64,000 bases of DNA. It comes from Thermoleophilia bacterium (GTDB taxonomy: Bacteria > Actinomycetota > Thermoleophilia > Gaiellales > F1-60-MAGs149). Each line of letters starts with the position of its first letter. The stretch's first letter is position 1. The stretch spans positions 26,595 through 90,594 of the forward strand of contig JBAXNN010000002.1 in NCBI GenBank assembly GCA_037133755.1, read 5' to 3'. Shown in pieces: positions 2,621 through 63,800 of the stretch. The translations under genes and the position numbers were made by a program. The notes beneath the pieces were generated by a model. It worked only from the letters and a program-made list of their open reading frames with translations, ran no database searches and was not told where the DNA came from.

Positions 2621-3331
2621 TCAGAGCGGTGCGAGTCGATCCACGATCCGGTCGAGCGGCGACCAGAACGCGGACTGCGCGGCGGGGGTGCTCTGCAGAG
2701 CGGAGAGATGGCCGTACGTGCAGTCGTCGTCCGACGCCAGCACGCGTACCGCGGCCGGATGCGGCGCAATCGAGTTGACGATCGACGCTGCCCCGCGCTC
2801 GCCCACAACCTGATCCCGGTCGCCGACGAGCATCGTGACCGTCGTGGTCGGGGGCACGACGAGCGGGCCGCGATCGTGACCGCGGACGAAGTACGGGAAC
2901 ACGCCGAAGACCGCAGACGGCACGGGGATGCCCCAGCGCTCGGCCTCCGCGGCCGCCACGACGGCGAGGCCCGCGCCGTACGAGTAGCCCGCGGCGATCA
3001 ACGGCCGGTCGGTCAGGCCGAGCTCGGCGAGACCATCGCGCACGCCGGCGACGGCACCGGCCAGCATCTGCCGGCGCGACGATCGCAGGCTCGCCTGATA
3101 GCGGGGAAACACCACGGTGACGTTGCGCCCCGTGAGGTGACGGATCCACTGCAGGTAGTTGCGGGGCGTGCGGTCGCTCCAGCCGTGCAGCAGCACGACC
3201 GTGGCGCGCGACTCGCCGTCAGGGTGAAAGACGTCGGCCGTGCCAGCCTCGACCGTGGCGGCATCCGACGGCGGACCTTCCCACGTCGCTGCCAGCTTGG
3301 AGACGGCCAGAGCGGGGAGGGGAGTACGCAT
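2621..3331 (-). CDS. Alpha/beta hydrolase family protein (no signal peptide seen)
   Basis: 236 aa with VVLLHGW, a GYSYG nucleophile-elbow-like motif and an LVGDRDQVVG acid loop. It is a paralog of the next gene. Confidence 0.6.
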   Translation of the reverse strand: MRTPLPALAVSKLAATWEGPPSDAATVEAGTADVFHPDGESRATVVLLHGWSDRTPRNYLQWIRHLTGRNVTVVFPRYQASLRSSRRQMLAGAVAGVRDGLAELGLTDRPLIAAGYSYGAGLAVVAAAEAERWGIPVPSAVFGVFPYFVRGHDRGPLVVPPTTTVTMLVGDRDQVVGERGAASIVNSIAPHPAAVRVLASDDDCTYGHLSALQSTPAAQSAFWSPLDRIVDRLAPL

Positions 3332-3376: not shown

Positions 3377-4114
3377 TCAGTTCGGTGCGAGCCGGTCTAC
3401 GAGCTTGTCAAGCGGCAGCCAGAACGCTTTCTGCGCCTGGGCGTCCGTGCCCTTCGGCGCGAAGTGATCGAACGTGATGGCATCTGTCGACTTGAGGGTC
3501 GTGATCGTGGCGGGGTGCGGCGCGATCGCGGCCGCCAACTGCTCAGCGCCGTTCGTGCCCACGACCTGATCGGCATCGCCGACCAGCAGGGACACGCTCG
3601 TGGCCTTCGGCACGGTGCCAAACGGCTGAGGCACCGTCGGCGGCATGGCGGGGAACACGCCGTAGACCGCGGCGGGCTCTGGCACGTCCCACGCCGTGGC
3701 GTTGGCGGCGTAGACGACGGCGAAGCCACCTCCGAGCGAGTAGCCAGCGGCGACGACCGGGCCCTGCGGCGGTGCCTGCTCGAACCCGGCGCGGATCGCC
3801 TGCTCCGTGCCGTCGAGCATCTGGCTCGGCGTCGACAGGATGCCGCGTTGATAGCGCGGGTAGATGACCATCACGCCCGTCTCGTTGAGATGCGCGATCC
3901 ACGGCTCGTAGCCCTTGGGCGCCACGTCGTTCCAGCCGTGGAGCAACACGACGGTGGCGCGCTCGGTGCCCTGTGCCGGGAAGACGTCGGCGGTCGCCGT
4001 CGTGGGCGCGGTGGTCGCGGCCTGGATCGTCGTCGGTGCGTCGCCCGTACGCGTCGTCGCTCCACCACAGCCCACGAGGAGAAGGGCGGCGAGGAGAGGG
4101 AGGAGGCGTCGCAT
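3377..4114 (-). CDS. Lipoprotein alpha/beta hydrolase family protein
   Basis: 245 aa. MRRLLPLLAALLLVGCGG is a lipobox. It has VVLLHGW, GYSLGG and LVGDADQVVG, and it is colinear with 2621..3331. Confidence 0.65.
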   Translation of the reverse strand: MRRLLPLLAALLLVGCGGATTRTGDAPTTIQAATTAPTTATADVFPAQGTERATVVLLHGWNDVAPKGYEPWIAHLNETGVMVIYPRYQRGILSTPSQMLDGTEQAIRAGFEQAPPQGPVVAAGYSLGGGFAVVYAANATAWDVPEPAAVYGVFPAMPPTVPQPFGTVPKATSVSLLVGDADQVVGTNGAEQLAAAIAPHPATITTLKSTDAITFDHFAPKGTDAQAQKAFWLPLDKLVDRLAPN

Positions 4115-7310: not shown

Positions 7311-8546
7311 ATGCGAACCCTCTTGCGTCGCCGCAACCTGCTCGCCCTCGCCGTCATCGTCGCCTTCGCGCTGGTGGTTGCGCCCAGTGCCTCCGCCGGC
7401 GCGATCTCGACGGTGGTCCAAGTCGGCGAGACCGCTGGCTCGATCTCGCCGAGCACCGTCACCGGCGCAGCAGGGGATACCTTGCAGGTGCACAACGCTG
7501 GAACGCACGCAGGGTCGTATGGCGAATACATCACCATCGAGAACGGCACCGGAACGGCCTCGCTCGGCGGGTACCCGTGTACGAACTCTGGCATCTGCAT
7601 GATCGTGGACGGGTCGACCGAAACACTCACCATCCTCACCCCCGGCACGTTCTGGATCGTGCGCGAATCGTTTAATACGGGCACGACGACAATCGGGACA
7701 CTCACAGTCTCTGCACCTGCACCCGCAGTTGACCCGGTCACCGCCGTGCCGGGCGCGCTCGACTGCGCCTCCAGCAACTGGAACTTCGGCGTCGTCGACT
7801 ACACGCAGGGCGGGTTTGGCGATCAGATCCTCGTGACGTGGGGCATGCCGAAGGTCTGCAGCGGCGGCGTCGCATCCTTTGTGCTCCGGCAGACGACGCC
7901 CGACGGCGCCTCGACGAATGTCCCGGTGGCTTTGTGCACGCCGGACCTCGTCGTCAAGCCTGGGTCATCCGATGCCCTCTGGTCCTGCGCGCTCAAGGTC
8001 GCCGCAGTACCGGCAAACACGCTCGAGTTCCAGGTCGTCGCGACGACGACCGGTGGGCTACAGGCGTCCTCGCGCAGCGTGCAGTGGGTGCGCGATGCGG
8101 CACCAAATGCTGACGTCGCGGGACCGGGCGCCGGTGCCTGCTCGGGGAGGATTTCACCCACTGGCTCTGGCGCGGCCCTAGGGTCAAGCCCGAACCTCAT
8201 TTGCTTCATCGTGCAGCTTGTCATCCAGACCGAGTACGCCTCGAACGGCAACCAGGCGCTGACGGACAAGCAGGCGCGCGAGCTCCTCAACATCGGCGTT
8301 GCCTTCTCCGACACCCAGTCCGCCCGTTCGGGCCGTGCCGCCAAGGCCAAGTGGGTCTCGATCGGCAAGAAGACGATGAAGATCAAGAAGGCAGGCAAGC
8401 TGCGCGTCTCGCTGCCGCTGTCGAAGAAGGGCGTGGCGCTCCTGCGCAAGGGCCCGCTGAAGGTGCGCGTGACCTACACGCTGACCCGCGGCACTGCCAC
8501 GCGGACGATCGTGCAGTACGCGACGCTGCCGCGCATCGCGTCGTAG
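7311..8546 (+). CDS. Secreted cysteine-rich protein of unknown function
   Basis: 411 aa. Signal peptide MRTLLRRRNLLALAVIVAFALVVAPSASAGA. GC3 is good. The C-terminus is lysine-rich (KKTMKIKKAGKLRVSLPLSKKGVALLRKGPLKVRVTYTL). I recognised no family. Confidence 0.7.
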   Translation: MRTLLRRRNLLALAVIVAFALVVAPSASAGAISTVVQVGETAGSISPSTVTGAAGDTLQVHNAGTHAGSYGEYITIENGTGTASLGGYPCTNSGICMIVDGSTETLTILTPGTFWIVRESFNTGTTTIGTLTVSAPAPAVDPVTAVPGALDCASSNWNFGVVDYTQGGFGDQILVTWGMPKVCSGGVASFVLRQTTPDGASTNVPVALCTPDLVVKPGSSDALWSCALKVAAVPANTLEFQVVATTTGGLQASSRSVQWVRDAAPNADVAGPGAGACSGRISPTGSGAALGSSPNLICFIVQLVIQTEYASNGNQALTDKQARELLNIGVAFSDTQSARSGRAAKAKWVSIGKKTMKIKKAGKLRVSLPLSKKGVALLRKGPLKVRVTYTLTRGTATRTIVQYATLPRIAS

Positions 8547-9716: not shown

Positions 9717-11107
9717 TCGACCTCTCGCGCGCCGGCTCGATCGACCAGCCCGATGGCGCAGGGAGCGCCGGTGGTGGACGCTGCGACGACCGCGTGCGCT
9801 TCACCCTGCGCCTCGCCGGCGAACGCCTTGCCGAAGTGCGCTTTGGTGCCGACGCCTGCGCCTCGACGACCGCGGCCGCCGCGTGGCTGGCCGAGGCGGC
9901 AGAGGGAAGCGGGCTGCTCGACGCCGCACGGCTTGGGCTCACCGACGTGCTGGCCGGCACGACGATCGACTCGCCCGAGTGCGCGCTCACCGCCGTCGAC
10001 GCGCTGCACGCAGCGCTGGGTGATGCCGTCGTGCGCGGTGCGTCGATCGCCGCCGACCCGCACCGTGTGGGCATCGCCATGAGCGGTGGGGTCGATTCCG
10101 CGATGGTGTTGACGAGCGCGGTGGAGGAGGGGCACGAGGCGGTTGGGCTGACGCTGCGCCTCTGGATCGACCCGGATGCCCCAAATCCCGAACGCGCCTG
10201 CTGCGCGCCGAGTGCCGTGCGCGCCGCGCGCGATCTGTGCCACGCCAAGGGCATGCCGCACTTCATGCTCGACCTGCGCGAGGACTTCCGCGCCGCGGTG
10301 GTCGAGCCGTTCGTGGCGGGCTACGCCGCGGGCGAGACGCCCAACCCGTGCGCCACGTGCAACGGCGCCTTCCGCTTCGACGCCATCGACGCCATCGCTA
10401 CGGCCCTCGGCTGCAGCGAATGGCGCACCGGCCACTACGCGCGACTCGTCGAGCGAGACGGTGCGCTGCTGGTGGCGCGGGGTGCCGACCCGGATAAGGA
10501 CCAGTCGGCCATGCTCGCGCTGGTCGACCCGGCGATTCTCGCCCGCGTGCGGCTGCCGCTGGGCGAGCGCATCAAGCGCGACGTGGTCGCCGAGGCCGGC
10601 GCGAAGGGGCTCGCCGCGGCGAAGGCGCCGGAGAGCCAGGAGGTGTGCTTCCTCGGCGGTGGTGAGTTGGCGCCATTCCTCGAACGGCAGGGCGTCGAGT
10701 TGGTTCCCGGCCCGATCGTCGACGAACAGGGCGTGGAGCTCGGTACGCACCACGGTGCCGTGGCCTTCACGCCAGGTCAGCGCCGCGGCCTCGGCGTGTC
10801 GCGCGGCACCGACGCGCTGTACGTGCTCAAGGTCGATGCACTGTCCAACACCGTCGTGGTCGCCACGCTCGAACGCCTCGGCCGCCGCGAGGTTGAACTG
10901 CGCGACGTGCGCCTGCGCGTGCCCTGTGACCGCGTCGGCGCAAGCTTCCGGGTGCGCGCCGAGCCGATCCCCGCCGCGCTCGCTGCGCACGCCGACGGCA
11001 CGGCGACGCTGGTGCTCGACCGCGATGCCTTCCAGGTCGCCCCCGGCCAGGTCGCCGCGCTCTACGACGGCGACTGCATCGTGGCCGCCGGCGTCGTCGC
11101 CGGCTGA
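9713..11107 (+). CDS. mnmA: tRNA 2-thiouridylase MnmA with an N-terminal IscU/SufU-like domain
   Basis: 464 aa. Residues about 1-105 resemble a U-type scaffold with three Cys (GGGRCDD, GADACAST, SPECAL). The rest is MnmA: the PP-loop AMSGGVDS, NPCATCNGAFRF and ESQEVCF. Confidence 0.85.
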   Translation: MIDLSRAGSIDQPDGAGSAGGGRCDDRVRFTLRLAGERLAEVRFGADACASTTAAAAWLAEAAEGSGLLDAARLGLTDVLAGTTIDSPECALTAVDALHAALGDAVVRGASIAADPHRVGIAMSGGVDSAMVLTSAVEEGHEAVGLTLRLWIDPDAPNPERACCAPSAVRAARDLCHAKGMPHFMLDLREDFRAAVVEPFVAGYAAGETPNPCATCNGAFRFDAIDAIATALGCSEWRTGHYARLVERDGALLVARGADPDKDQSAMLALVDPAILARVRLPLGERIKRDVVAEAGAKGLAAAKAPESQEVCFLGGGELAPFLERQGVELVPGPIVDEQGVELGTHHGAVAFTPGQRRGLGVSRGTDALYVLKVDALSNTVVVATLERLGRREVELRDVRLRVPCDRVGASFRVRAEPIPAALAAHADGTATLVLDRDAFQVAPGQVAALYDGDCIVAAGVVAG

Positions 11108-11144
11108 CGGCTCGGCGTTCGCAATCGCGTACCCTGCCGGGGCA

Positions 11145-13784
11145 ATGCTGGCTCACGAAATCCGCGCCGCCTATCGGAACCACTTCGAGCAGAACGGGCA
11201 TCTCGTCATGCCCTCGGCGAGCCTCGTGCCCGCATCGCTCGATCCGTCGGTGCTGCTCACGACCGCAGGCATGCAGCCGTTCAAGCCGTTCTTCCTCGGT
11301 CTCGACACGCCGCCGGCCACGCGCCTGACGAGCGTGCAGAAGTGCTTCCGCACGACGGACATCGACGAGGTCGGCAAGACCGCGCGTCATCTCACCTTCT
11401 TCGAGATGATGGGCAACTTCTCGTTCGGCGACTACTTCAAGGCCGGCGCCATCGAGTTTGCGTGGACGCTCGTCAGCGGCGCGTGGCAGATGGACACCGA
11501 CAAGGTGTGGATCACGGTCTTTGCCGGCGACGACCAGGTGCCCGGTGACGACGAGGCGCGCGAGCTCTGGCTCGCCCAGGGCGTGCCCGCCGAGCGCATC
11601 GTCGGCCTCGGCCGCAAGGACAACTTCTGGCAGGCCGGCCCGACCGGACCCTGCGGCCCGTGCAGCGAGCTCTACTACGACCGCGGCGTCGAGCACGGCT
11701 GCGGACGTCTCGCTGGCCCTGACGGCTGCAAGCCGGGCTGCGACTGCGACCGCTTCCTCGAGTTCTGGAACCTCGTGTTCATGCAGTACGACCAGGCCGA
11801 GGATGGCTCGCTCTCGCCGCTGCCCAAGACGGGCGTCGACACGGGCGCGGGCGTCGAGCGCGTCGCCGCGCTGCAGCAGGGCGTGCACTCGGTCTACGAG
11901 ACCGACGGCTTCAAGGCGATCATCGCCGCGATCGAGGAGTGGACCGGCACGTCGTACGAGTCTGGCGGCATCCACACCAAGGCGCTGCGCGTGCTCGCCG
12001 ACCACGGCCGCGCGATGACGTTCCTCGCCGCCGACGGCGTATTGCCCGCCAACGAGTCGCGTGGCTACATCCTGCGCCGCGTCATCCGCCGCGCCGTCTC
12101 GCACGGCCATCGCCTCGGCATCAAGGGCACGTTCCTCGAGCGCCTCGCCGATCTCGTGATCACGCAGCTCGGCGACGTCTACCCCGAGCTGGTGCAGAAC
12201 CGCGACGACGTGATCCGCATTCTCAGCGGCGAGGAGGAGCGCTTTCTTCGCACCCTCGAGACCGGCACGACCCAGTTGGAGGAGCGAATTGCGCGCGTCC
12301 GCGCCGAGGGCGGCACCGCGCTGCCCGCCGCCGACGCCTTCCTCCTGCACGACACCTATGGCTTCCCGTTCGAGCTCACGCAAGAGCTCGTCGCCGAGCA
12401 GGATCTCTCGGTCGACGAGGCCGGCTTCGCCGAGCTGATGGAGGCACAGCGCCAGCGCGCTCGCAGCGCCGCCGGCAAGGGTAGCGGTGTCGACATGGAC
12501 AAGGTCGCCGCGTTCGCGCGCGAGGCCGGGTTCGTAACGGAGTTCGTCGGCTACGACCAGAACGACATCCGCACGCGCATCGGTGCCCTCACCGACGTCG
12601 GCGATGGCCGCATTACCGTGAAGCTGCGCGAGTCGCCGTTTTATCCCGAGGGTGGCGGCCAGGTCTCCGACGCCGGCCACATCGAGTCCGACACGGGCCG
12701 CGCCGCGATCGTCGACGTGATCCGCTTCGATAAGGACCAGACGCTGATCGTCGTCATGGAGCACGGCGAGTTGATGGAAAACCAGGAGGTGCGCGCGATC
12801 GTCGATACGACGACTCGCCGCCCGACGCAGGCCAACCACACCGGTACGCACGTGCTGCATCGCGCGCTGCAGGAGGTGCTCGGCGACCACGTTCGTCAGA
12901 AGGGCTCGTCCGTGCGTCCCGACAAGCTGCGCTTCGACTTCTCGCACGAGACCCCGCTGACGCCGGAGGAGCTGGCGCGCGTTGAGGACATCGTCAACCG
13001 CGTCGTCATCGAGGGGCACCGCGTCTTCACGTTCGAGACCTCGCAGGACGAGGCGCGCGAGCTCGGCGCGATGATGCTGTTTGGCGAGAAGTACGGCGAC
13101 GTCGTCCGCGTGGTCGAGATCGAAGGCTTCTCCCGCGAGCTCTGCGGTGGCACGCACGTGGCCACGACGGCCGAGATCGGCCCGATGCGCATCGTGTCGG
13201 AGTCGAGCGTCGGTCAGGGCGTGCGTCGCATCGAAGCCGTCACCAGCGGTGTCGCGATCGACCTGCTGCGCCAGCGCGAGCGCGCGGCTGACGAGGCGTC
13301 GAAGGCGCTCAAGGTCGGGCCCGAGCGCCTGCCCGAGGCCGTCCGCGATCTGCAGGCCAAGGTGCGCGAGCTCGAGAAGCAGCTGAAGGCCGGCGGTGGG
13401 TCCGCGGGTGGTGCAGCCGTCGACGAGCTGGCTGCGCAGGCGCAGGAGCGCGGTGGCGTGAAGCTCGTGGCTGCCGGGGTGGGCGAGATCGCCCCCGACG
13501 CGCTGCTCGAGCTGGCCGATCATCTGCGTGGCGCGCTCGGCTCGAGCGTCGTGCTGCTGATCGGCGAGAACGCGGGCAAGGTCGCGCTGATCTGCGCGGC
13601 GACGCCGGAGGCCGTGGCCGCCGGTGCCGACGCGGGTGCCGTGATGAAGGTCGCAGCGCCGCTCGTGGGTGGTGGCGGTGGTGGCAAGCCGAATCTGGCC
13701 CGTGCCGGTGGCAAAGACGCCAGCGGCATCCCCGCTGCGCTCGAGGCAGGCCTCGCGGCTCTCGCCGACCAGCTGCCGGCCTGA
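11145..13784 (+). CDS. alaS: Alanine--tRNA ligase
   Basis: The start is taken at MLAHEIRAAYRNHFEQNGH, in frame with ORF 10176..13784. It contains FFEMMGNFSFGDYFK, WNLVFMQY and a C-terminal DHHA1-like GGGGGKPNLA. Confidence 0.95.
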   Translation: MLAHEIRAAYRNHFEQNGHLVMPSASLVPASLDPSVLLTTAGMQPFKPFFLGLDTPPATRLTSVQKCFRTTDIDEVGKTARHLTFFEMMGNFSFGDYFKAGAIEFAWTLVSGAWQMDTDKVWITVFAGDDQVPGDDEARELWLAQGVPAERIVGLGRKDNFWQAGPTGPCGPCSELYYDRGVEHGCGRLAGPDGCKPGCDCDRFLEFWNLVFMQYDQAEDGSLSPLPKTGVDTGAGVERVAALQQGVHSVYETDGFKAIIAAIEEWTGTSYESGGIHTKALRVLADHGRAMTFLAADGVLPANESRGYILRRVIRRAVSHGHRLGIKGTFLERLADLVITQLGDVYPELVQNRDDVIRILSGEEERFLRTLETGTTQLEERIARVRAEGGTALPAADAFLLHDTYGFPFELTQELVAEQDLSVDEAGFAELMEAQRQRARSAAGKGSGVDMDKVAAFAREAGFVTEFVGYDQNDIRTRIGALTDVGDGRITVKLRESPFYPEGGGQVSDAGHIESDTGRAAIVDVIRFDKDQTLIVVMEHGELMENQEVRAIVDTTTRRPTQANHTGTHVLHRALQEVLGDHVRQKGSSVRPDKLRFDFSHETPLTPEELARVEDIVNRVVIEGHRVFTFETSQDEARELGAMMLFGEKYGDVVRVVEIEGFSRELCGGTHVATTAEIGPMRIVSESSVGQGVRRIEAVTSGVAIDLLRQRERAADEASKALKVGPERLPEAVRDLQAKVRELEKQLKAGGGSAGGAAVDELAAQAQERGGVKLVAAGVGEIAPDALLELADHLRGALGSSVVLLIGENAGKVALICAATPEAVAAGADAGAVMKVAAPLVGGGGGGKPNLARAGGKDASGIPAALEAGLAALADQLPA

Positions 13785-18938: not shown

Positions 18939-20126
18939 ATGGCGCTCTCCTTCGTCACCTCCGGCCAGTCGCACGGTCCCGGCATCGTCGCGATCCTCTC
19001 GGGTCTGCCCGCGGGCCTGCTTCCGGACCGCGATCGCCTGCAGCGTGATCTGGCCCGACGCCAGGCTGGCTACGGCCGTTCGCCGCGTCAGGCGATCGAG
19101 ACCGACGAGGCCACGATCCTCGGCGGCATGCGCCATGGCCGCACGCTCGGCGGGCCGCTCAGCCTGATCGTCAAGAACCGCGATCACGAGAACTGGGGCG
19201 CCGCCCAGAGCGCCTGGCCCGTCACCGACGAGGAGCTCGCCGAGGTCCATGCGCGGCGCACGCGCGTCGTCAACGTGCCGCGCCCGGGCCACGCCGACCT
19301 GTCGGGCGTCATGAAGTACGAGCTGCCCGACGTCCGCGATGTGCTCGAGCGCGCCTCGGCTCGCGAGACCTCTGCCCGTGTGGCGGTCGGCGCGTTCTGC
19401 AAGGACCTGCTCGACACCGTCGGTATCACCGTCCATGGCCACGTTGTGCGCGTCGGTGCCGTTGAGGCCCCGCACCGCGACGACATCACGGCGCGCGAGT
19501 TCATCGAGATGAGCGAGCGTCAGGTCGGCTGCCTCGACGCCGACACCGACGCCAAGATGGTCGAGGAGATCGAGGCCGCCAAGAAGGCGCAGGACACGCT
19601 CGGCGGCATCGTTGAGGTGCGCGCGTTCGGCTGCCCGCCCGGGCTCGGCTCCTACGCCTCCGAGGACTGGCGTCTCGACGCGCGCATCGCGGGTGCCGCG
19701 ATGGGCATCCAGGCGATGAAGGCCGTCGAGATCGGAGACGGCTGGGCCAACGCCTCGCTGCGCGGCAGTGCCGTGCACGACGAGCTCCGCTACGACGAAG
19801 GCTACAAGCGCGACTCCAACCGCGCGGGCGGGCTCGAGGGCGGCATGACCAACGGTGAGCCCGTCGTCGTGCGCATCGCCATGAAGCCCCTGCCGACGCT
19901 GATGAAGCCGCTCAAGACCGCGACGCTCGACACGCACGAGCCGGCCGAGGCGCTGGTCGAGCGCTCCGACACGACCGCGATCTATGCGGCTGCCGTGGTG
20001 GCCGAGGCCGTCATCGCCTTCGAGTTGGCGCGCGCCGCCAAAGAGAAGTTCGGCGGCGATGCGATTGGCGACTTCGTCGCGGCGCACGCGCACTACCTCA
20101 ACCGGATTCCCTGGTCGCCCGCATGA
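18939..20126 (+). CDS. aroC: Chorismate synthase
   Basis: 395 aa with TSGQSHGPGIVAILSG, RPGHADL and GGMTNGEPVVVR. Confidence 0.95.
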   Translation: MALSFVTSGQSHGPGIVAILSGLPAGLLPDRDRLQRDLARRQAGYGRSPRQAIETDEATILGGMRHGRTLGGPLSLIVKNRDHENWGAAQSAWPVTDEELAEVHARRTRVVNVPRPGHADLSGVMKYELPDVRDVLERASARETSARVAVGAFCKDLLDTVGITVHGHVVRVGAVEAPHRDDITAREFIEMSERQVGCLDADTDAKMVEEIEAAKKAQDTLGGIVEVRAFGCPPGLGSYASEDWRLDARIAGAAMGIQAMKAVEIGDGWANASLRGSAVHDELRYDEGYKRDSNRAGGLEGGMTNGEPVVVRIAMKPLPTLMKPLKTATLDTHEPAEALVERSDTTAIYAAAVVAEAVIAFELARAAKEKFGGDAIGDFVAAHAHYLNRIPWSPA

Positions 20127-21604
20127 GCCGGCCCGACGTCCTCGTCGGGTTCATGGGTGCCGGCAAGTCCACCGTCGGCGAGTTGCTGGCGGCGCTCAAG
20201 GGCACCACGTTCGTCGACGTCGACCGCGAGCTCGAGCGCCGCACGTCGCGCTCCATCCCCGATCTCTTCGGCGATGGCGAGGAGCAGTTCCGCGAGCTCG
20301 AGGAGCAGGTCATCACCGAGCTGATCGCGGCGGGCGAGCACGGCGTGATCGCGCCGGGCGGCGGCGCGCTGTCGCGCCCGGGCACGCGCGCGCTGGTGCG
20401 CCAACAGGCTCGCGTGCTGTTTCTCGACGCTCCGGCCGAGGTGCTGTGGCAGCGCGTCGAGGCCGACGGTGGCGCTGGCACGCGCCCGCTGGCCGTCAAC
20501 TTCCATCGTTTCGAGGACCTGCATAGCCAGCGCCAGACGCTCTACGTGACAGCCGCCGACGCGATCGTCGATGCCGCGGCCGATCCGGAGACCGTGGCGA
20601 TCGCCTGCCGCGACGCGGGCGTCGTGCGCCCCGGTGCACTCGACCGCATCGCAGAGTTGGCTGACGGCCGCCGCGCCTTCGTCGTGGTCGATCTACCCGT
20701 CGCCGACCGCATCCCGGAAGGGCTCGAGGTCTACACGCTGCCCGGAGGCGAGCAGTGCAAGACCGTCTCGCACGTCGAAGCGCTCTGGCGTGCGTTCGCC
20801 GAGGCCGAGCTCGAGCGCCGCGATCTCGTCGTCGCCATCGGCGGCGGCGCTGTCACCGACGTGACCGGCTTTGCCGCCGCGACCTTCCGCCGCGGGCTTG
20901 ACTGGGTCTCGTGCCCGACGACGCTCGTCGGCCAGGTCGACGCCGGCATCGGTGGCAAGACCGGGATCGACGTCGCCGCCAAGAACGACGTGGGCAGCTT
21001 CCATCCGCCGATTGCCGTGCTGGCCGACCCGTCGCTGCTGACCACGCTGGTCGACCGCGAATGGCGTGCCGGCTTCGCCGAGGCGCTCAAGACCGGCCTG
21101 CTCGCGGGCGGGCCACTGTGGGAGCTCGTGCGCGAATGGCCCACGACGCGCGGCACCGACGACGAGCGCTGGACCCTCGTGCGTCGCTGCGCCGCGCTCA
21201 AGCACCGCGTCGTGGCCGCCGACCCGACCGAGCAGGGCGTGCGCGCCATCCTCAACCTCGGCCATACGATCGGCCATGGCGTCGAGCACGCCGCGGGTGG
21301 CCGCTATCTGCACGGCGAGGCGATTGCGATCGGTCTTGTCGCGGCGCTGCAGCTGTCGGTCGAGCATGCTGGCCTCGACGTGGCGATTGCCGACGAGGTG
21401 ATGGGCGTCCTCACGCGTCAGGGCCTGCCGACGGTGGCCGACGACGTTGCGCCCGAAGCGGTACTCGACGCGATGCGCTCCGATAAGAAGCGCGTGGCCG
21501 GCCGTACCCGCTTCGTGCTGCTCGAGGCGCCCGGCCAGCCGGTCTGGGGCGTCGAGCTCGACGACGACGCGGTTGCCGCCGCCGTCGACGCCGCGTGCCG
21601 CTGA
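20123..21604 (+). CDS. Bifunctional shikimate kinase / 3-dehydroquinate synthase
   Basis: 493 aa. The N-terminus GFMGAGKSTVG (Walker A) is AroK. From about residue 170 it is AroB: GGGAVTDVTGFAAATFRRGL, DAGIGGKTGID and LNLGHTIGHGVE. Confidence 0.9.
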   Translation: MSRPDVLVGFMGAGKSTVGELLAALKGTTFVDVDRELERRTSRSIPDLFGDGEEQFRELEEQVITELIAAGEHGVIAPGGGALSRPGTRALVRQQARVLFLDAPAEVLWQRVEADGGAGTRPLAVNFHRFEDLHSQRQTLYVTAADAIVDAAADPETVAIACRDAGVVRPGALDRIAELADGRRAFVVVDLPVADRIPEGLEVYTLPGGEQCKTVSHVEALWRAFAEAELERRDLVVAIGGGAVTDVTGFAAATFRRGLDWVSCPTTLVGQVDAGIGGKTGIDVAAKNDVGSFHPPIAVLADPSLLTTLVDREWRAGFAEALKTGLLAGGPLWELVREWPTTRGTDDERWTLVRRCAALKHRVVAADPTEQGVRAILNLGHTIGHGVEHAAGGRYLHGEAIAIGLVAALQLSVEHAGLDVAIADEVMGVLTRQGLPTVADDVAPEAVLDAMRSDKKRVAGRTRFVLLEAPGQPVWGVELDDDAVAAAVDAACR

Positions 21605-23183: not shown

Positions 23184-23750
23184 ATGGCGGAAATGGTCTC
23201 CACGAATCAGTTCAAGAACGGCATGCACATCGATGTCGACGGCACGACGTATCGCATCGTCGAGTTCCAGCACGTCAAGCCCGGCAAGGGTGGCGCGTTC
23301 GTGCGCACGAAGCTGAAGAACTTCGACAACGGCTCGGTTGTGGATCGCACGTTCCGCGCCGGCGAGAAGTTCCAGCGCATCCTCACGAGCGTCGCCGACA
23401 TGCAGTTTCTCTACGACGATGGCACCGACGTCGTGATGATGGACACGGAGACCTACGAGCAGGTCACGCTCAAGCGCGCGATGTGCGAGGAAGACCTCCG
23501 CTGGCTCAAGGAGGGCGATACCGTCCAGCTCCTCAGCGTCGACGACAACCCCGCGTCGCTGCAGCTGCCCGCCTCGGTCGAGCTCTCCGTCACCGCGACC
23601 GAGCCCGGCGTCAAGGGCGACACCGTGTCCAACGTGATGAAGCCCGCCACGCTCGAGACCGGTGCCGTCGTGCAGGTGCCGCTGTTCGTCAACGAGGGCG
23701 ACCGCATCCGCGTCGACACGCGCGAGGCCAAGTACATCTCGCGTGCCTAG
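23184..23750 (+). CDS. efp: Elongation factor P
   Basis: 188 aa with VSTNQFKNGMHIDVDG, VKPGKGGAFVRTKLKN and ATLETGAVVQVPLFV. Confidence 0.95.
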   Translation: MAEMVSTNQFKNGMHIDVDGTTYRIVEFQHVKPGKGGAFVRTKLKNFDNGSVVDRTFRAGEKFQRILTSVADMQFLYDDGTDVVMMDTETYEQVTLKRAMCEEDLRWLKEGDTVQLLSVDDNPASLQLPASVELSVTATEPGVKGDTVSNVMKPATLETGAVVQVPLFVNEGDRIRVDTREAKYISRA

Positions 23751-23799
23751 CGCTCCGCCTGCGGGCGTGCGTTGCGGGGCTCGTTGTCGATCAGGTGTG

Positions 23800-23898
23800 G
23801 ATGCTCCAAAGGGGTCAGACCCTTTTGGTGCATGCGAGCCGTTGAAGGCACTACGGCGCCGATCATGCTCCAAAAGGGTCTGACCCCTTTGGAGCATC
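23800..23898. repeat. Pair of 34-bp near-palindromic units in inverted orientation (REP-like)
   Basis: Unit 1 (23800..23833) is gatgctccaaaggggtcagacccttttggtgcat. The reverse complement of unit 2 (23865..23898) matches unit 1 at 33 of 34 positions. The spacer is 31 bp. The pair lies directly after the efp stop. Confidence 0.75.
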
Positions 23899-24003
23899 TG
23901 CGCTCGAGCAACCTCTCGCTGCCGATACTCGTTCCCACTGCCCACCCGCCACGGAGCGCGCCCTGCGCGCTCCGGGTTGTCCGGTCGCTAACCTCTTCCA
24001 CTG

Positions 24004-25782
24004 ATGGCACGTCTCGTCGACACCACGCTGCGCATTCTCGCGCAGGAGCCCATCGCCGGCCGTGTGCCCGCGTCGCTCCAGTTCGAGGCGTGCGAGCTGC
24101 TCGACAGCGCCGGCTTCCACGTGCTCGAGGTGACGGGCGGCGGCTGCTTCTACAGCGCCGTCCAGCGCGGCGTCGAGAGCCCCTGGGAGCGCATCCGCAA
24201 TCTTCGCCGTCGCGCCACGCAGACGCCGCTCGGCATGGCGCTGCGCGGCCGCTTCCTCGTCGGAACGCAGCCCGTCGAGCAGGACCTGATTCGCCGCTTC
24301 GTCGATAGTGCTGCCGAGTCGGGCATTGCGGTCTTCCGCATGCACGACGTGATGAACGATCCCGAGGATCTCGCGGGTCCCGTCGAGGCCGTGCGCGAGA
24401 CCGGTGCCCGACTGCACCTCGGCCTCGTCTACGACGAGTATCCGGAGGGCGAGGCGCGCATGCTCGCCCGGGCACCCGAGCTGGCTGCCCTCGGCGCCGA
24501 CCGTCTGCTCCTGCTCGATCCCGCCGGTGCGCTCGACCCGTCGAAGACCGGCGCGCTGATCACCAAGCTGCGCGACGCCGCCGGCATCCCCGTCGGCCTG
24601 TATCCGCAGGGTCCGGGTGGCACCTCGCTCGCCGTCGCCATCGAGGCTGCGCGTGCCGGCGCCGATCCGATCTCCGTCGCCACGTATCCGCTCGCCGTCT
24701 CCGGCCATCGGACCAGCTCGGAGCTGCTCTGCCAGACGATCGACGGCCTCGGTCTCGAGTCGGGCATCGACCAGGGCGTGCTCTGGCAGGTCGCCGAGAT
24801 GCTCGACCGCGCGCTGTTTGCCGACACCACGCTGCCGCCGCCGCTGTCCGCGCACGTCTCGCTGCAGGCCGCGCTGAAGGGCGTGCCCGCGGGGCTCGTC
24901 GCCGGCGTCGAGCGCCGCCTCGAGGCCATCGACGCGAGCGACCGTCTGGCCGAGGTGCTCGACGAGGTCCAGCGTGTGCGCGACGACCTCGGCACACCGC
25001 CCGCTGCCTCGCCGCTCGGCGACGTGATCGCGCGGCAGGCGATCGACCACGTGCTCGAAGGCCGCCGCTGGAATGCCATTGACGGCGAGATGCGCGCCCT
25101 GATTCGCGGTGAGTGGGGCCGGCCTCCGGCACCCATGAATCCCGAGGTCGTGGCGTTGGCCGAGACCGGCAACGGAGGTGCATCCTCGATTTCCGTCCCC
25201 GCCGACATCGCCTCGGCTCGGGCCGAGGTCGGCGAGCTGGCCACCTCCGAGGAGGAGCTCTGCCTCGTCGCGCTGTTTGGCGACGACGCGGTGCCGCTGC
25301 TCGAGCGCCTGCGCGGCCGCCACCAGGCGATCGCCACCGGCGTCACCAACGAGGAGGAAGAGCGCATCCGCGGCCTCGTCGATCTCCTCGAGGAGACCGG
25401 ACTGGGCGAGCTCGAAGTGGAGGAGGGCGGCATCCGCATCTCGCTCCGCCAGCAGACGCAGGTCCAGCAGGTCTTCGCGGCCGCGCCTGCCGCTGCCGCC
25501 GCGGCTCCCGCTGACGCTACCCCTGCCGCACCGAGCGGGCAGCAGATCACGAGCCCGATGGTCGGTACGTTCTATCGCTCGCCCGGCCCCGGCGAGGCGG
25601 CCTTCATCGAGGAGGGCGCCACGGTCGAGGTTGGACAGGTGCTGTGCATCCTCGAGGCGATGAAGCTCTTCAACGAGTTCAAGGCCGAGACCGCCGGCAC
25701 GATCAAGCGCATCCTCGTCGAGGACGCGACGGCCGTCGAGTTCGGCCAGCCGCTGTTCGAGATCGACCCCAGCGGGGCGTAA
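24004..25782 (+). CDS. PycB/OadA/5S-like carboxyltransferase-fold domain (metal ligands substituted) fused to an AccB-type biotin carboxyl carrier domain
   Basis: 592 aa. The N-terminal part aligns with the 5S/OadA TIM barrel (SPWERIRNLRR, LRGRFLVG, FRMHDVMNDPEDL). The C-terminus SPMVGTFYRSPGPGEAAFIEEGATVEVGQVLCILEAMKLFNEFKAE is colinear with E. coli AccB. Confidence 0.8.
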   Translation: MARLVDTTLRILAQEPIAGRVPASLQFEACELLDSAGFHVLEVTGGGCFYSAVQRGVESPWERIRNLRRRATQTPLGMALRGRFLVGTQPVEQDLIRRFVDSAAESGIAVFRMHDVMNDPEDLAGPVEAVRETGARLHLGLVYDEYPEGEARMLARAPELAALGADRLLLLDPAGALDPSKTGALITKLRDAAGIPVGLYPQGPGGTSLAVAIEAARAGADPISVATYPLAVSGHRTSSELLCQTIDGLGLESGIDQGVLWQVAEMLDRALFADTTLPPPLSAHVSLQAALKGVPAGLVAGVERRLEAIDASDRLAEVLDEVQRVRDDLGTPPAASPLGDVIARQAIDHVLEGRRWNAIDGEMRALIRGEWGRPPAPMNPEVVALAETGNGGASSISVPADIASARAEVGELATSEEELCLVALFGDDAVPLLERLRGRHQAIATGVTNEEEERIRGLVDLLEETGLGELEVEEGGIRISLRQQTQVQQVFAAAPAAAAAAPADATPAAPSGQQITSPMVGTFYRSPGPGEAAFIEEGATVEVGQVLCILEAMKLFNEFKAETAGTIKRILVEDATAVEFGQPLFEIDPSGA

Positions 25783-27143
25783 TGCTGCGTCGCTGCCTCG
25801 TCGCGAACCGGGGCGAGATCGCCGTCCGGATCATCCGCGCCTGCCACGAGCTCGGCATCGAAGCAGTCGCCGTCCACTCGACGGCAGACAAGGACGCCAT
25901 GCACGTGCGCATGGCCGATCACGCGGTGCAGATCGGCCCGCCACAGGCGTCGGAGTCGTACCTGCGCGTCGATCGCCTCGTCTCCGCCGCACTGAGCACG
26001 GGCTGCGACTCGATCCATCCGGGCTACGGGTTCCTCGCCGAGAGCACCGAGCTCGTACGCGCGTGCGCCGAGCACGACCTGGTCTGGATTGGTCCCGCCG
26101 CCGAGGTGATCGAGACGATGGGCGACAAGGCCGTCGCCAAGGACACCATGCGCAACGCCGGCCTGCCGCTTGTGCCGGGCTCCGGTGGACGCCTATCGGG
26201 TCCCGACGAGGCCGCCGAGGTCGCCAAGGAAGCCGGCTATCCCGTGCTGCTCAAGGCCGCGGCCGGTGGTGGCGGCAAGGGCATGCGCCTTGTGCACGAG
26301 CCCGGTCAGGTCCGCGATCTGTTCCTCGCCGCCAGCGCCGAAGCGGAAGCCGCCTTCGGCGATGCGGGCATGTACCTCGAGAAGGCCGTGATCGACGCGC
26401 ACCACGTCGAGATCCAGGTGATGGGCGATGGTCTCGGTGGGGGCATCATCCTCGGCGAGCGCGAGTGCTCGATCCAGCGCCGCCACCAGAAGCTGATCGA
26501 GGAGTCGCCGTCGCCGTTCCTCTCTGCCGCCACGCGCGAGCAGATGATGACCGCCGCGCGCGACGCCGTCGAGTCGCTCAAGTACGCCGGTGCCGGCACC
26601 ATCGAGTTCCTGGTCGGTGACGACCAATCGTTCTACTTCATGGAGATGAACACGCGCCTCCAGGTCGAGCACCCGGTAACCGAGGTCGTCGCGGGCTTTG
26701 ACCTCGTGCAGGCGCAGCTGCTCGTCGCCGGCGGCGAATCACTGCCGCAGTGGAGCGAGGCCGAGAATCGCGGCCACGCGATCGAGTTCCGCATCAATGC
26801 GGAGGACCCGATGCACGGCTTCCGCCCCGCGCCGGGCCGCATCGAGCGATTTCGTCCGGCGCTCGGCCCCGGCATCCGCATCGACACCTTCATGGAAGAC
26901 GGCGCCTCCGTCCCGCCGTTCTACGACTCGATGATCGCCAAGCTGATCGTCTCCGGCCCCGACCGCGCGTCGGTGCTGGCGCGCTCGGCCCGAGCGCTCG
27001 ACGAGTTCGAGATCGTTGGCATCCCCACGACCATCCCGCTGCTCCGCGAGATCGTCGACGAGCCCAACTTCCGGGCCGGCCGCTACACGACGACGTACAT
27101 CGACGAAGTCGGCCATACGTTCTCCACGCTCGGAGAGGCGTAG
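25782..27143 (+). CDS. accC: Biotin carboxylase
   Basis: The start is at MLRRCLVANRGEIAVRIIRA, with a TAATG overlap to the upstream gene. It has an ATP-grasp region (PVLLKAAAGGGGKGMRLV), ECSIQRRHQKLIEE and MNTRLQVEHPVTE. Confidence 0.9.
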   Translation: MLRRCLVANRGEIAVRIIRACHELGIEAVAVHSTADKDAMHVRMADHAVQIGPPQASESYLRVDRLVSAALSTGCDSIHPGYGFLAESTELVRACAEHDLVWIGPAAEVIETMGDKAVAKDTMRNAGLPLVPGSGGRLSGPDEAAEVAKEAGYPVLLKAAAGGGGKGMRLVHEPGQVRDLFLAASAEAEAAFGDAGMYLEKAVIDAHHVEIQVMGDGLGGGIILGERECSIQRRHQKLIEESPSPFLSAATREQMMTAARDAVESLKYAGAGTIEFLVGDDQSFYFMEMNTRLQVEHPVTEVVAGFDLVQAQLLVAGGESLPQWSEAENRGHAIEFRINAEDPMHGFRPAPGRIERFRPALGPGIRIDTFMEDGASVPPFYDSMIAKLIVSGPDRASVLARSARALDEFEIVGIPTTIPLLREIVDEPNFRAGRYTTTYIDEVGHTFSTLGEA

Positions 27144-60833: not shown

Positions 60834-63800
60834 GTGAACCCGAATCGCCGTTCGATCTTCCTTCGTAGCGGTGTGGCGGCGACGGCGCTGGTGGGCGCGG
60901 CCTTCATTGCGGGTCCGGCTGCTGCGGCTGAGCAGGGAGCAGCGGTCGACGCGTCGACGTCGCGCGTGGCGCGTGCCACGGGCGAGGTGCCTCAGACGCT
61001 GCCCGACTTCCGTGCGCTGATCTCGAGCGAGGCCGGCTGTGTCGCCAACGCCGAGTACATGGCCCGTCACCTGCAGTGGTCGGTCAACAGTCCGCGTGTC
61101 AGCCAGAGCACGGTCGTGCGCGTGATCGCGCGTATCAAGCGGGCGTCGGCGCCGTGCAACAACTTGCTGTTTCGCAACGGCAATCGGGTGCATCCCGATG
61201 CCGGCATCCTGACGGGCAACGGCTTCAGCTTCAAGGCAGCCACCTGCACTGGCGCCGAGGCATGCGACGGCGGTAACGGCGGCCTGCTGATGGGTTCCGG
61301 TGGCAACGGCGCCAACGGCGGTGACGGCGGCGACGCCGGCTGGTACAGCGGTCGTGCCGGCAACGGCGGCGACGCGGTTGTGGCAGGCCAAGACGGCGGC
61401 GACGGCGGCCGCGCCGGTCGCGTCGGCGCGGGCGGCAATGGCGGCGCTGGCCTGGAGAGCGGCGACGGCGGCAATGGCGGCAGGGGCGGCCTCCTGAGCG
61501 GCAACGGCGGCAATGGCGGTAACGGCGGCAGCGCGACGACGGCGGGCCAGGCTGGTGGCGATGGCGGCGCCGGTGGTCGTGCCGTGGCGAAGAAGGGCGT
61601 CGGCGGCCGCGGCGGGGCAGGCGGGGCAGGCGCGGCAGGCGCCGCGGGGGCGACCGGCACAACCGGGTCCGGTGTCGGGGTCGCTGGCGGAACCGGTGGC
61701 AACGGCGGTAACGGTGGCAGCGGTGGCAACGGTGGTGCTGGCGGCAGTGCACCCAAGGGAGTCGCAGGCAACGGCGGCGCCGGCGGTGCTGCGGGCAACG
61801 CAGGCAACGGCGGTGCAGGCGGTGCGGGCTACGACGGCGTCACAGCCGGCGAGAACGGCTCGAGCGGCGGCACGGGCGGCCTGTCCGGCACGCCGGGCGC
61901 AGCGGGCAAGGGTGGCGCCGCGGGTGCCGGCGCAGCCGCAGGTTCCGCTGGCGCGGCAGGTGACGCCGCGTCGGTCGCCGTCGCGGGTGCTGGCGGTCGA
62001 GGCGGCAACGGCGCTGGAGCACTTGCCAACGTCGCGGGTGCCAGTGGTGGCAACGGCGGCACAGGTGGTGCCGCCACGGGCAGTGGTCGCGCGGGTGCCG
62101 GCGGCATTGGCGGCAACGGCGGCGCTGGCGGTACCGGCACGGCGGGTACGCTGACGGCAGTAGCCGGTGTCGGCAAGGCCGGCGGTAGCGGTGGCAACGG
62201 CGGTACCGGCGGTGTGGCGGCTACGGGAGTGGCCGGAGCTGGCGGGGTTGGCGGTAACGCAGGCGTAGGTGGTACCGGTGGCGCCGGATTCAACGGCGTT
62301 GGCGCCAATGGCGCCAACGGTGGTGCAGCGGGCGCGGCAGGTAACGGCGGCACCGGAGGAGCGACCACGTCGGGTACCGCCGGCGTTGGCGGTGCCGGCG
62401 GCGACGGCGCACGCGGTGGCAGTGGCGGCCTTGGCAATCTCGGGGGTAACGGCGGCAACGGTGGAGCGGCAGGTGCTGGCGGTGCCGGTGGTTCGGGCGG
62501 CAGTGCGGCCTCCGGAGGCACCAACGGCAACGGCGGCGCAGGCGGCAATGGCGGTGCCGGCGGATCCGGAGCCAACGGCGGCGCCGGTGACCCAATCGCA
62601 GGTGCTACGGCGAACGGTGGCAATGGCGGCAACGGCGGAGCCAGTGCCGCAGCTGGTACGGGAGGTTCCGCTGGTAGCGGTGGTATCGGTGGCGCGAGCG
62701 GCGCCAGTGGTACCGCTGCCACTGCGAGCAACGGCGGCAACGGCGGTGCTGGCTGGGACTCGACTGTCGCGGGCGTGGCGGGCGGCGTGGGTGGTAACGG
62801 CGGTGATGTTGGTAGCGGTGCGGGTGGTAGCGGCGGTAACGGTGGTGCCGGGGGCGCCGGCTTCGTCGGCGTTGACGCAACCGCCTTGGCCGCCGCGTCG
62901 GCGGGTACGAGCGGGGGTAGCGGAGGTGCCGGGGGTGCATCAACGAGCGGCAATGGTGGCGCGGGTGGCGCGGGTGGCGCGGGTGGCGCCGGTGGCGACG
63001 GCCTCGTCGGCGGTGCGCAGGCGCTTGCAAGCGGCGAGGCCGGCGGTACTGGTGGCGCGGGTGGCGCTGGCGGTTCAGTGAGGACAGGGATCGCCGGCAA
63101 TGGCGGCGCGGGCGGAGGAGCCGGCGCAGGCGGCGACACCGCTGTCGGCGCGTCTGGTGTGATCGGACAGGTCGGCGGTCCGGGCCGCAGCGGCGGCGCG
63201 GGCGGCGCTGGTGGAGACGCGACGGGTGGCCGTGCGGGCAACGGCGGCGCTGGCGGTGCTGGAAGCACCGGAGGCGCGGGCGGCGGGTCCAACCTCAGCG
63301 GCAACTCCGGCGGCAACGGCGGTGCCGCGGGTGCCGGCGGGGCCGGCGGTCCTGGCGGAAATGCGGCCGGCACCAACGGAAATGGCGGCAATGGAGGTAG
63401 GGCCGGCAACGGCGGCGCAGGTGGCGCGGGCTTGGCTGGCACGCTTGGCAATGCGGGTACGTCGGGCGGCGCGGGTGGCTCGGCCACTGCTGCCCCCGGC
63501 GCCGCAGGCGCAGCAGGTTCTGGCGCCGGCTCGGCGGGCACTGCGGGCACCGCTGGTGCCTACGGCAATGGTGGCGCGGGCGGCGCTGGCGGCGCTGGCT
63601 TCGTCGGCGTCGATGCCACGAACGCAAGCGCTTCCGTGGCTGGTACCAGCGGTGGCAGTGGCGGTGCCGGCGGCGATGCGACCGGTGGGAACGCGGGTAA
63701 CGGCGGCAACGGTGGCAACGGCGGCAACGGCGGCAACGGCTTTTCGCCCGTGGCCAATCCCGGTGGGTCGAATGGTGGCAGCGCTGGTAGCGGCGGCGCT

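Follow-up and report, generated by a model that had tools for sequence, protein, structure and literature searches.

The DNA analysed here, a stretch of 64,000 nucleotides from a Thermoleophilia bacterium of the order Gaiellales (assembly GCA_037133755.1, contig JBAXNN010000002.1; hereafter the window), carries directly upstream of accC a gene that takes the place of the small accB of Bacillus subtilis. Its product (24004–25782) is a carboxyltransferase (CT) fold of the PycB/OadA/5S type joined to a complete AccB, the biotin carboxyl carrier protein (BCCP) of acetyl-CoA carboxylase. The residues that bind the catalytic metal in active members of the family have been replaced, in this protein and in its relatives throughout the Gaiellales genomes sampled, while the domain as a whole is under strong purifying selection. 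The best reading of these sequence data is that the N-terminal CT domain is a pseudoenzyme module that is kept for a non-catalytic job.

A carboxyltransferase fold joined to AccB

The initial annotation, made from the letters alone, had likened the N-terminal part to the CT domain of 5S, OadA and PycB, and had taken all four metal-ligand positions to be substituted; both claims are upheld. The CT domain spans some 440 residues and is evident from Pfam, from sequence matches to PDB entries and from the predicted fold. Pfam recognises PYC_OADA at residues 293–435 (7e-14) and Biotin_lipoyl at residues 514–587 (4e-21); the score for HMGL-like (20 bits) stays under its gathering cut-off of 29. The NCBIfam models for PycB, OadA and 5S match the protein end to end, all of them far under their cut-offs: 339 bits against 402 for the PycB model NF006761, the best of them, and 289 bits against 756 for TIGR01108. 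The best PDB sequence match, covering residues 4–476, is 5ks8_C, the PycB of the two-subunit pyruvate carboxylase of Methylobacillus (8.6e-61), and for the CT part there are further matches to 2nx9 (Vibrio OadA, 7e-53) and 1rqb (Propionibacterium 5S, 1e-48). The AlphaFold2 (AF2) model of the fusion protein has a mean per-residue confidence (pLDDT) of 81 and consists, over the CT part, of an eight-stranded barrel followed by a helical funnel. The eight beta-alpha units of the barrel (residues 1–290) are predicted with pLDDT mostly above 85. A Foldseek comparison of the model with the PDB returned 5ks8 as its best match, at 1e-36, and gave target-normalised template modelling (TM) scores of 0.81 to 1rqb (5S) and 0.86 to 2nx9 (OadA).

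Within this fold the four ligand columns are occupied by other residues: Asp is replaced by Ile11, the carbamylated Lys by Leu171, and the two His by Tyr200 and Gln202. Pairwise phmmer alignments, MAFFT alignments with three PDB references (5ks8, 2nx9 and 1rqb) and hhalign agree on this placement, and comparison of the folds leads to the same assignment. A profile alignment had been set beforehand as a possible refutation: it did not bring Asp, Lys, His and His back into the ligand columns. The alignment in question pairs a 21-sequence profile of the Gaiellales family with a 17-sequence profile of intact relatives (hhalign probability 100%, E 5e-115, 582 collinear columns), and opposite the four ligands of the intact relatives the Gaiellales family has L/I, L/H, Y and Q. 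Read as motifs, LRDGHQS or LRDAHQS of the active enzymes corresponds to LRILAQE, IKDMA to LLDPA, HLHAH or NLHCH to GLYPQ, and PGGM(I/L)(S/T)N to PAGLVAG.

The changes extend to the residues adjoining the ligands. His13 is Ala, Ser15 is Glu, PGG has become PAG and Asn301 is Gly; the Tyr of LLGY is Thr88 and the Asp of GGATFD is Tyr50. In pyruvate carboxylase a proton is shuttled by the Ser/Thr of the PGG loop. Here the loop reads VPAGLVAG and the position of this catalytic Ser/Thr is Ala300. More generally, active CTs have 44 positions with a conservation of 90% or more that is not matched in the Gaiellales family, and these include the catalytic and pocket residues D11, S15, W44, D50, Q83, Y88, K171, G296 and N301. 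The CT fold has thus been kept and the metal site is gone: the N-terminal 440 residues are unable to build the site at which enzymes of this family bind their metal.

The C-terminus, for its part, had been described as AccB-like rather than PycB-like, and it proves to be a complete AccB of about 140 residues with a segment for binding biotin carboxylase (BC), a linker, a thumb and an EAMK motif. The AccB equivalog model TIGR00531 (cut-off 115 bits) reaches 132 bits over the whole protein, and 137.7 bits when confined to residues 454–592, covering positions 6–155 of its 156. The BCCP chain of the E. coli BC–BCCP complex, 4hr7_B, matches residues 451–587 (1.7e-28) and is aligned from its residue 22 to 175. 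Residues 450–486 correspond to the BC-contacting part of E. coli BCCP. A hidden Markov model of this segment gave 121 matches, which are all 120 intact relatives (see below) and the window protein itself (the file searched also held three PDB fragments). After the CT part AF2 predicts a single helix (residues 450–465) and then disorder, with pLDDT below 50 for residues 466–507. From its motif, EAMKL(F), Lys554 (codon 25663–25665) is predicted to be the site of biotin attachment. At 592 residues the fusion protein is thus unlike the small stand-alone AccB (~150–170 residues): only residues 450–592 make up its AccB part.

The fusion gene ends in TAA (25780–25782), the last A of which is also the first letter of the accC start codon (25782–25784). 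This TAATG overlap had been noted at the outset and is confirmed in the sequence; through it the fusion gene is translationally coupled to accC, and the two lie in one operon. The encoded AccC ends in ...EVGHTFSTLGEA.

Comparison with characterised systems sets the protein apart from each of them. PycB of Methylobacillus flagellatus (5KS8) resembles it in having a CT (barrel plus funnel) followed by a BCCP, with a separate BC gene beside it; the window protein differs in having no metal site, no catalytic Ser/Thr, and a biotinyl domain with an AccB thumb. In PycB of this type a four-stranded BT-like sheet with an HGE motif lies between CT and BCCP and pairs with an Ala-rich hydrophobic C-terminal helix of the BC (PMC5059739). 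The connection in the window protein is instead the AccB N-terminal segment: residues 440–526 of 5ks8 find no aligned counterpart, and the AccC of the window (453 residues) is without the hydrophobic, Ala-rich C-terminal helix of PycB's partner. OadA (2NX9) and 5S (1RQB) have the same CT fold and the motifs ESPWERxR, LRG and FRxxDxxND in common with the window protein; unlike them it has none of the metal ligands, and there are no oadB/oadG or 12S/1.3S genes nearby. 5S, moreover, has no fused carrier. With the AccB of acetyl-CoA carboxylase from E. coli and B. subtilis (TIGR00531, 4HR7, 1BDO) the agreement of residues 450–592 extends over the whole profile and above the trusted cut-off, and the gene shares the position directly upstream of, and coupled to, accC; the difference from stand-alone AccB (~156 residues) is an N-terminal extension of 449 residues.

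Conservation and ancestry of the fusion

The distribution of the fusion was surveyed both in protein collections, where the 120 closest clusters (47–95% identity) were considered, and in genomes, where one genome per GTDB species was searched and the best 80 of at least 586 matching stretches were kept. Fusions with lost ligands were found throughout the two sets. Wherever they are named, the 120 clusters come from metagenome-assembled genomes (MAGs) of Gaiellales, Gaiellaceae, Thermoleophilia or Actinobacteria, and all of the best 80 genomes are Gaiellales-type MAGs; the nearest relatives (95–97% identical) are MAGs of freshwater origin (Lake Mendota, Lac Pavin and Loclat). Public assemblies had no record of the exact window protein. 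Leaving aside a few truncated entries, the clustered proteins are ~580–600 residues long, and Asp, Lys and the second His are absent from 120/120 of them. The genomes give the same picture column by column: Asp is found in 0/79 (Leu or Ile in 79/79), Lys in 0/80 (His in 57, Asn in 12, Leu in 8), and the second His in 0/80 (Gln in 80/80); the first His persists in 8/80, with Tyr in 71/80 and Phe in 1/80. The catalytic Ser/Thr is Ala in 72/80. By contrast with these losses, R10, Q14, R81 and D172 are invariant in the Gaiellales genomes surveyed, and the biotinyl Lys (K554 column) is present in 78/78 of those that could be aligned. Because the same substitutions recur in 120 clusters and in genomes of 80 species, they are neither chance nor a one-off.

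The genomic setting is equally stable. In the window the neighbours of the fusion gene are efp, accC, nusB, xseB and ispA, and across the 80 genomes the order pepP–efp–[fusion gene]–accC–nusB is essentially invariant: the claim that the gene sits where accB would be expected, ahead of accC and among neighbours ordered as in Bacillus, is thus borne out at the locus and among relatives. The accC gene adjoins the fusion gene in nearly all 80. Three contigs end before accC; beyond these, one locus (L068) gave no accC match and another (L081) gave one ~4 kb downstream.

A prediction that separates a decaying from a retained domain concerns the strength of purifying selection. The ratio of nonsynonymous to synonymous substitution rates (dN/dS) was calculated by the Nei-Gojobori method between the window and relatives L006–L010 (a comparison with L005, which gave meaningless values >1, probably through a frame offset of the coordinates, was left out). 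For the CT-like residues 1–440 it is 0.03–0.10, as compared with 0.03–0.09 for accC and 0.03–0.13 for efp: the dead domain is as constrained as its essential neighbours. Consistent with this, 107 positions of the CT domain are at least 90% conserved within the Gaiellales family, and the frame of ~590 residues is uninterrupted in almost all of the 80 genomes and 120 clusters, a few being shortened at contig ends or by assembly errors. The conserved positions include residues newly fixed at strand ends (G47, C48, H114, P173, Y200 and Q202), and D115, N118 and D119 are kept alongside D172.

Searching residues 1–450 against 1.84 billion representative proteins returned three groups: a handful of 50%-identity clusters that make up the Gaiellales family, ordinary carboxyltransferases with D-K-H-H at the ligand columns (25–37% identity), and CT proteins with an AccB-like carrier, complete with thumb and N-terminal segment, some of which are fully canonical. 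One such intact fusion, P0138, and its 119 closest relatives come, where named, from Thermoleophilia or Actinobacteria MAGs; the residues D, K, H, H, Y, D, S and N are kept in 120/120 of these sequences (all alignable). Intact CT-AccB relatives exceed the cut-offs of both models, with 830–866 bits for PycB and 144–162 bits for AccB. Their AccB part opens with a relic initiator Met (MDINKLKELI...), a sign that the fusion arose by read-through from a CT gene into accB. They are uncharacterised, and are annotated as 'acetyl-CoA carboxylase BCCP' or 'oxaloacetate decarboxylase alpha'.

Intact fusions (P0346, P0138, P0142) have the same length, domain order and genomic slot as the window protein; they differ in keeping all catalytic columns and in passing the PycB cut-off, whereas the window protein keeps none of these residues and shares no more than ~30% identity with them over the CT part. 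In the Thermoleophilia MAG GCA_054640535.1 the order is aroC–aroK–aroB–aroQ–pepP–efp–[P0346]–accC–nusB–xseB–ispA–dxs–tlyA–nadK–recN. In Syntrophomonadaceae it is spoIIIAA–AH–[P0142]–accC–asp23–nusB–...–folD–xseA, a position between spoIIIA and accC that is the classical accB slot of Bacillus. By position, then, the window gene is the orthologue of what appears, from its residues, to be an active CT-AccB hybrid, and the occurrence of intact orthologous fusions in the identical slot marks the Gaiellales gene as the decayed descendant of an apparently active fusion. The proposal that a pseudo-carboxyltransferase module had been grafted onto the BCCP therefore needs amendment: the fusion and the dead CT stand, whereas the domain was probably not dead when it was joined, given the intact orthologues in the same slot. 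Identity between the window and GCA_054640535.1 is 43–64% for the neighbouring genes, 55% for the biotinyl domain and 30% for the CT part, figures that indicate rapid change in the CT part alone, followed by the present constraint. The intact relatives also hint that pyruvate carboxylase, and possibly acetyl-CoA carboxylase, may share a single BC and a single carrier, an arrangement not described before.

The Gaiellales family is not alone in having lost the metal site. A second group of 'Thermoleophilia' MAGs (the P0220 family) has S-K-D-D at the ligand columns, with a pocket that is otherwise unconserved, in the identical slot; P0187, from an organism with 51% GC, has D-M-H-R and lies directly upstream of a BC gene; and P0167, a Hydrogenedentota protein, has D-N-H-R with no BC gene adjoining. 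That the replacement residues differ between lineages argues for separate decay. When 50 CT domains were placed in a neighbour-joining tree (200 bootstraps), the Gaiellales formed a clade with 100% support, and the S-K-D-D clade was its neighbour at 74%. Support is lacking at the deep nodes, where long branches are likely to attract one another, so that independent losses cannot be counted from this tree. Degenerate CTs with a short carrier of non-AccB type were found too, for example in Candidatus Acidoferrum (D-E-H-H).

Several stages of one process thus seem to be preserved in a single slot, from small AccB through the intact CT-AccB fusion to several differently decayed fusions, a natural series that shows a catalytic domain turning structural or regulatory.

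Possible roles of the dead domain

The explanation we consider probable is that the AccB part takes up its carboxyl group at AccC and conveys it, as carboxybiotin, to a CT whose gene lies elsewhere, with the dead CT kept as a structural or regulatory core. In the ancestor, the partners of AccC and the fused carrier would have been a pyruvate-type CT in cis and, probably, an acyl-CoA CT in trans; in the Gaiellales the activity in cis would have been given up, such that pyruvate would no longer be carboxylated by the dead domain. Lys554 would be biotinylated, AccC would dock on residues ~450–486, as it does in the E. coli BC–BCCP complex (4HR7), and would carboxylate the biotin; the biotinyl domain would then swing on its Ala/Pro linker and hand CO2 to a CT encoded elsewhere, most likely that of acetyl-CoA carboxylase. 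A CT encoded elsewhere is the most plausible acceptor since the conserved BC and biotinyl Lys need one and the site in cis is dead. No accA/accD, Carboxyl_trans, oadB/G or birA was found by Pfam among 40 called open reading frames (ORFs) of the window, a scan that left out genes already annotated through a locus 80% identical (L001) and saw housekeeping and catabolic genes only; the oadB/oadG genes for membrane subunits are likewise not among the neighbours of the fusion gene.

The dead CT itself may be a folded, probably dimeric core that organises the BC–BCCP subcomplex. This is proposed by analogy: the active CT homologues in pyruvate carboxylase and 5S are obligate dimers (PMC5059739; partly established knowledge). 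The remodelled and conserved pocket may in addition provide a site for a regulatory ligand or for the docking of biotin. If catalysis has been lost repeatedly and the whole polypeptide nevertheless kept, then CT activity would be dispensable and the folded domain structurally needed by the carrier/BC complex. Inert modules of the BC/BCCP machinery are known in the plant BADC proteins (BCCP look-alikes without biotin) and in the central domain of eukaryotic acetyl-CoA carboxylase (PMC12706156, PMC4833862); like the dead CT these are inert, conserved modules, with a part in regulation or architecture, but they offer an analogy only and are not homologous, the module here having originated from a dead pyruvate-type CT.

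Certain observations weigh against so simple a picture. The Arg/Gln/Arg with which active CTs bind their substrate (R10, Q14 and R81) is invariant, and the pocket is thus not simply decaying. A pocket with both conserved and newly fixed residues would suit the binding of a ligand, or an altered form of catalysis, no less well than it would a pure scaffold.

A ligand-binding role is the next reading to be considered, one that we regard as possible and rather unlikely. The CT domain would be a metabolite sensor or a biotin-docking regulator, its pocket binding a small carboxylate (pyruvate, oxaloacetate or 2-oxoglutarate) or the protein's own (carboxy)biotin and tuning delivery by the carrier. 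There is overlap with a shuttle built on a structural core; the difference is that ligand binding, not scaffolding, would be the reason for the domain's retention. Invariance of the substrate-contacting R10, Q14 and R81, the keeping of D172, D115, N118 and D119, the new invariant residues at the C-terminal ends of the barrel strands (C48, H114, P173, Y200 and Q202) and a dN/dS as low as that of an enzyme are all in keeping with a binding site. Position 171 fits less well, being variable (H, N, L, M or Q) and Leu in this genome, and the S-K-D-D sister clade keeps its domain with an unconserved pocket, from which it follows that retention does not need this pocket. A tentative extension is that a rebuilt candidate site (R10, Q14, R81 and D172 together with C48, H114, P173, Y200 and Q202) may let a central metabolite, or carboxybiotin of the carrier itself, directly gate the carrier of acetyl-CoA carboxylase across the Gaiellales, as an in-cis metabolic sensor made from a pseudoenzyme. 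Comparable metabolic gating is performed elsewhere by PII–BCCP interactions.

It is improbable that the domain is still a carboxyltransferase or decarboxylase, working on pyruvate or another acceptor by non-canonical chemistry that is metal-independent or depends on a new site (e.g. Cys48/His114/Asp172). Such a role would account for the strong purifying selection, for the retained Arg/Gln/Arg triad, and for the new conserved Cys and His at the mouth of the barrel. It has to contend with the loss of all four ligands of a metal that is needed to stabilise the enolate, with Ala in place of the proton-shuttling Ser/Thr in 72/80 genomes, with the loss of the Tyr and of the GGATFD Asp, and with the absence from this genome of His171, the candidate new ligand. 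To our knowledge no member of the CT family (PC, 5S or OadA) works without a metal.

That the domain is a functionless relic, that domain or gene is heading for loss, or that the fusion is an artefact of assembly or annotation might be suggested by the lost catalytic residues and by a CT part whose divergence from intact orthologues greatly exceeds that of the neighbouring genes; this we think very improbable and reject on grounds of conservation and selection, since a full-length frame of ~590 residues in almost all 80 genomes and 120 clusters, 107 conserved positions, dN/dS of 0.03–0.10 and a confident AF2 model all contradict it. Least probable of all is an ordinary PycB working with the adjoining BC as its PycA: a CT plus BCCP beside a BC gene, and a best PDB match to PycB (5ks8), are what would be expected of one, and the absent metal ligands and catalytic Ser/Thr, the score under the PycB cut-off, the missing BT-like beta-sheet domain, a BC without the Ala-rich C-terminal helix and the AccB-type carrier contradict it.

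The names under which these proteins stand in public records ('BCCP', 'oxaloacetate decarboxylase alpha', 'pyruvate carboxylase subunit B' and '2-oxoglutarate carboxylase large subunit') are misleading. An anaplerotic or Na+-pumping activity, which this protein almost certainly does not have, may on their account be ascribed to Gaiellales in metabolic reconstructions. Gaiellales are abundant and barely cultured Actinobacteria of soil and freshwater. Every Gaiellales genome sampled encodes an accC-linked carrier of ~590 residues, and the dead enzyme, which is strongly selected, takes up three quarters of it. Full-text literature searches brought up no account of a catalytically dead CT of pyruvate type joined to AccB; Lombard & Moreira (2011) go no further than 'divergent sequences of unknown function'.

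Feature coordinates and further observations

Table 1. Features of the fusion gene and its neighbours (window coordinates), and related fusions at other loci (coordinates of the locus named)
Feature	Coordinates	Strand	Basis
efp, upstream neighbour that defines the slot	23184..23750	+	ORF list, synteny
Whole gene, pseudo-CT/AccB fusion, 592 residues plus stop	24004..25782	+	ORF list, translation; full-length collinear hhalign match to intact CT-AccB fusions
TIM-barrel half of CT fold (HMGL-like/DRE-TIM type) without metal site, residues 1–290	24004..24873	+	AF2, Foldseek to 1rqb, 2nx9, 5ks8
Codon 11 (ATT, Ile) at metal-ligand Asp column, RD.HQS to RILAQE	24034..24036	+	alignments
Codon 171 (CTC, Leu) at carbamylated-Lys column, KDM to LDP	24514..24516	+	alignments
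Codons 200–202 (Tyr-Pro-Gln) at His-x-His metal-ligand columns	24601..24609	+	alignments
Helical 'funnel' half of CT fold (PYC_OADA domain), residues 291–440	24874..25323	+	Pfam PYC_OADA 7e-14, alignments
AccB N-terminal segment (ERIRGLVDLLEETGLGELEVEEGGIRISLRQ), residues 450–486	25351..25461	+	TIGR00531 from profile position 6; 4hr7_B
Ala/Pro-rich flexible linker, residues 487–511	25462..25536	+	sequence; AF2 pLDDT
Biotinyl domain with AccB-type thumb (GTFYRSPGPGEAAF), residues 512–592	25537..25779	+	Pfam Biotin_lipoyl; PDB 1bdo, 3bdo, 1a6x
accC (biotin carboxylase, 453 residues)	25782..27143	+	NF006367, 618 bits against cut-off 597
Intact CT-AccB fusions upstream of accC (other Thermoleophilia MAGs, Syntrophomonadaceae)	L092 8001-9845; L087 1563-3413; L088 6001-7908		
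Differently decayed CT-AccB loci	L090 8001-9842; L085 6001-7932; L086 6001-7797		

The region between efp and the fusion gene (23751–24003) holds, at 23800–23898, two copies of a palindromic unit of 33–35 nucleotides (ATGCTCCAAAGGGGTCAGACCCTTTTGGTGCAT). The copies are 97% complementary to each other, each forms a hairpin, and there are only these two in the window. A spacer of ~255 bp is common to the close relatives L006, L007 and L008, whereas in L005, L009 and L001 it is ~40 bp long; given this difference the element looks inserted. On sequence it looks like a small hairpin element, either MITE/REP-like (a miniature inverted-repeat transposable element or a repetitive extragenic palindrome) or a terminator. 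An Rfam scan of the locus gave only a chance match to a microRNA model, on the intergenic hairpin.

Fusion is seen upstream of the slot as well: shikimate kinase and 3-dehydroquinate synthase are joined in one ORF of 493 residues (20123–21604, + strand), likewise in the close relative L001, and are two separate genes in L090 and L092. The alaS ORF (10176–13784, + strand) is 1202 residues long and its class II tRNA-synthetase domain begins only at residue 328; either the true start lies far downstream, or the protein would have a long N-terminal extension. Three ORFs (2621–3331 and 3377–4114 on the - strand, 7311–8546 on the + strand) have a coding-like GC content at third codon positions (GC3 0.84–0.88) and no Pfam match at E <= 1e-5. 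At the far end, an open frame of more than 900 codons on the + strand (~61200–64000) runs off the window and consists almost wholly of GGxGGNGG/GGAGG repeats, with a local GC content of 0.74–0.79 and a GC skew of +0.23 to +0.26. Its match to the mycobacterial PGRS repeat model is weak and sub-threshold (24.9 bits, with the cut-off at 27); in a Gaiellales genome a glycine-rich protein of this PGRS-like kind is unusual.

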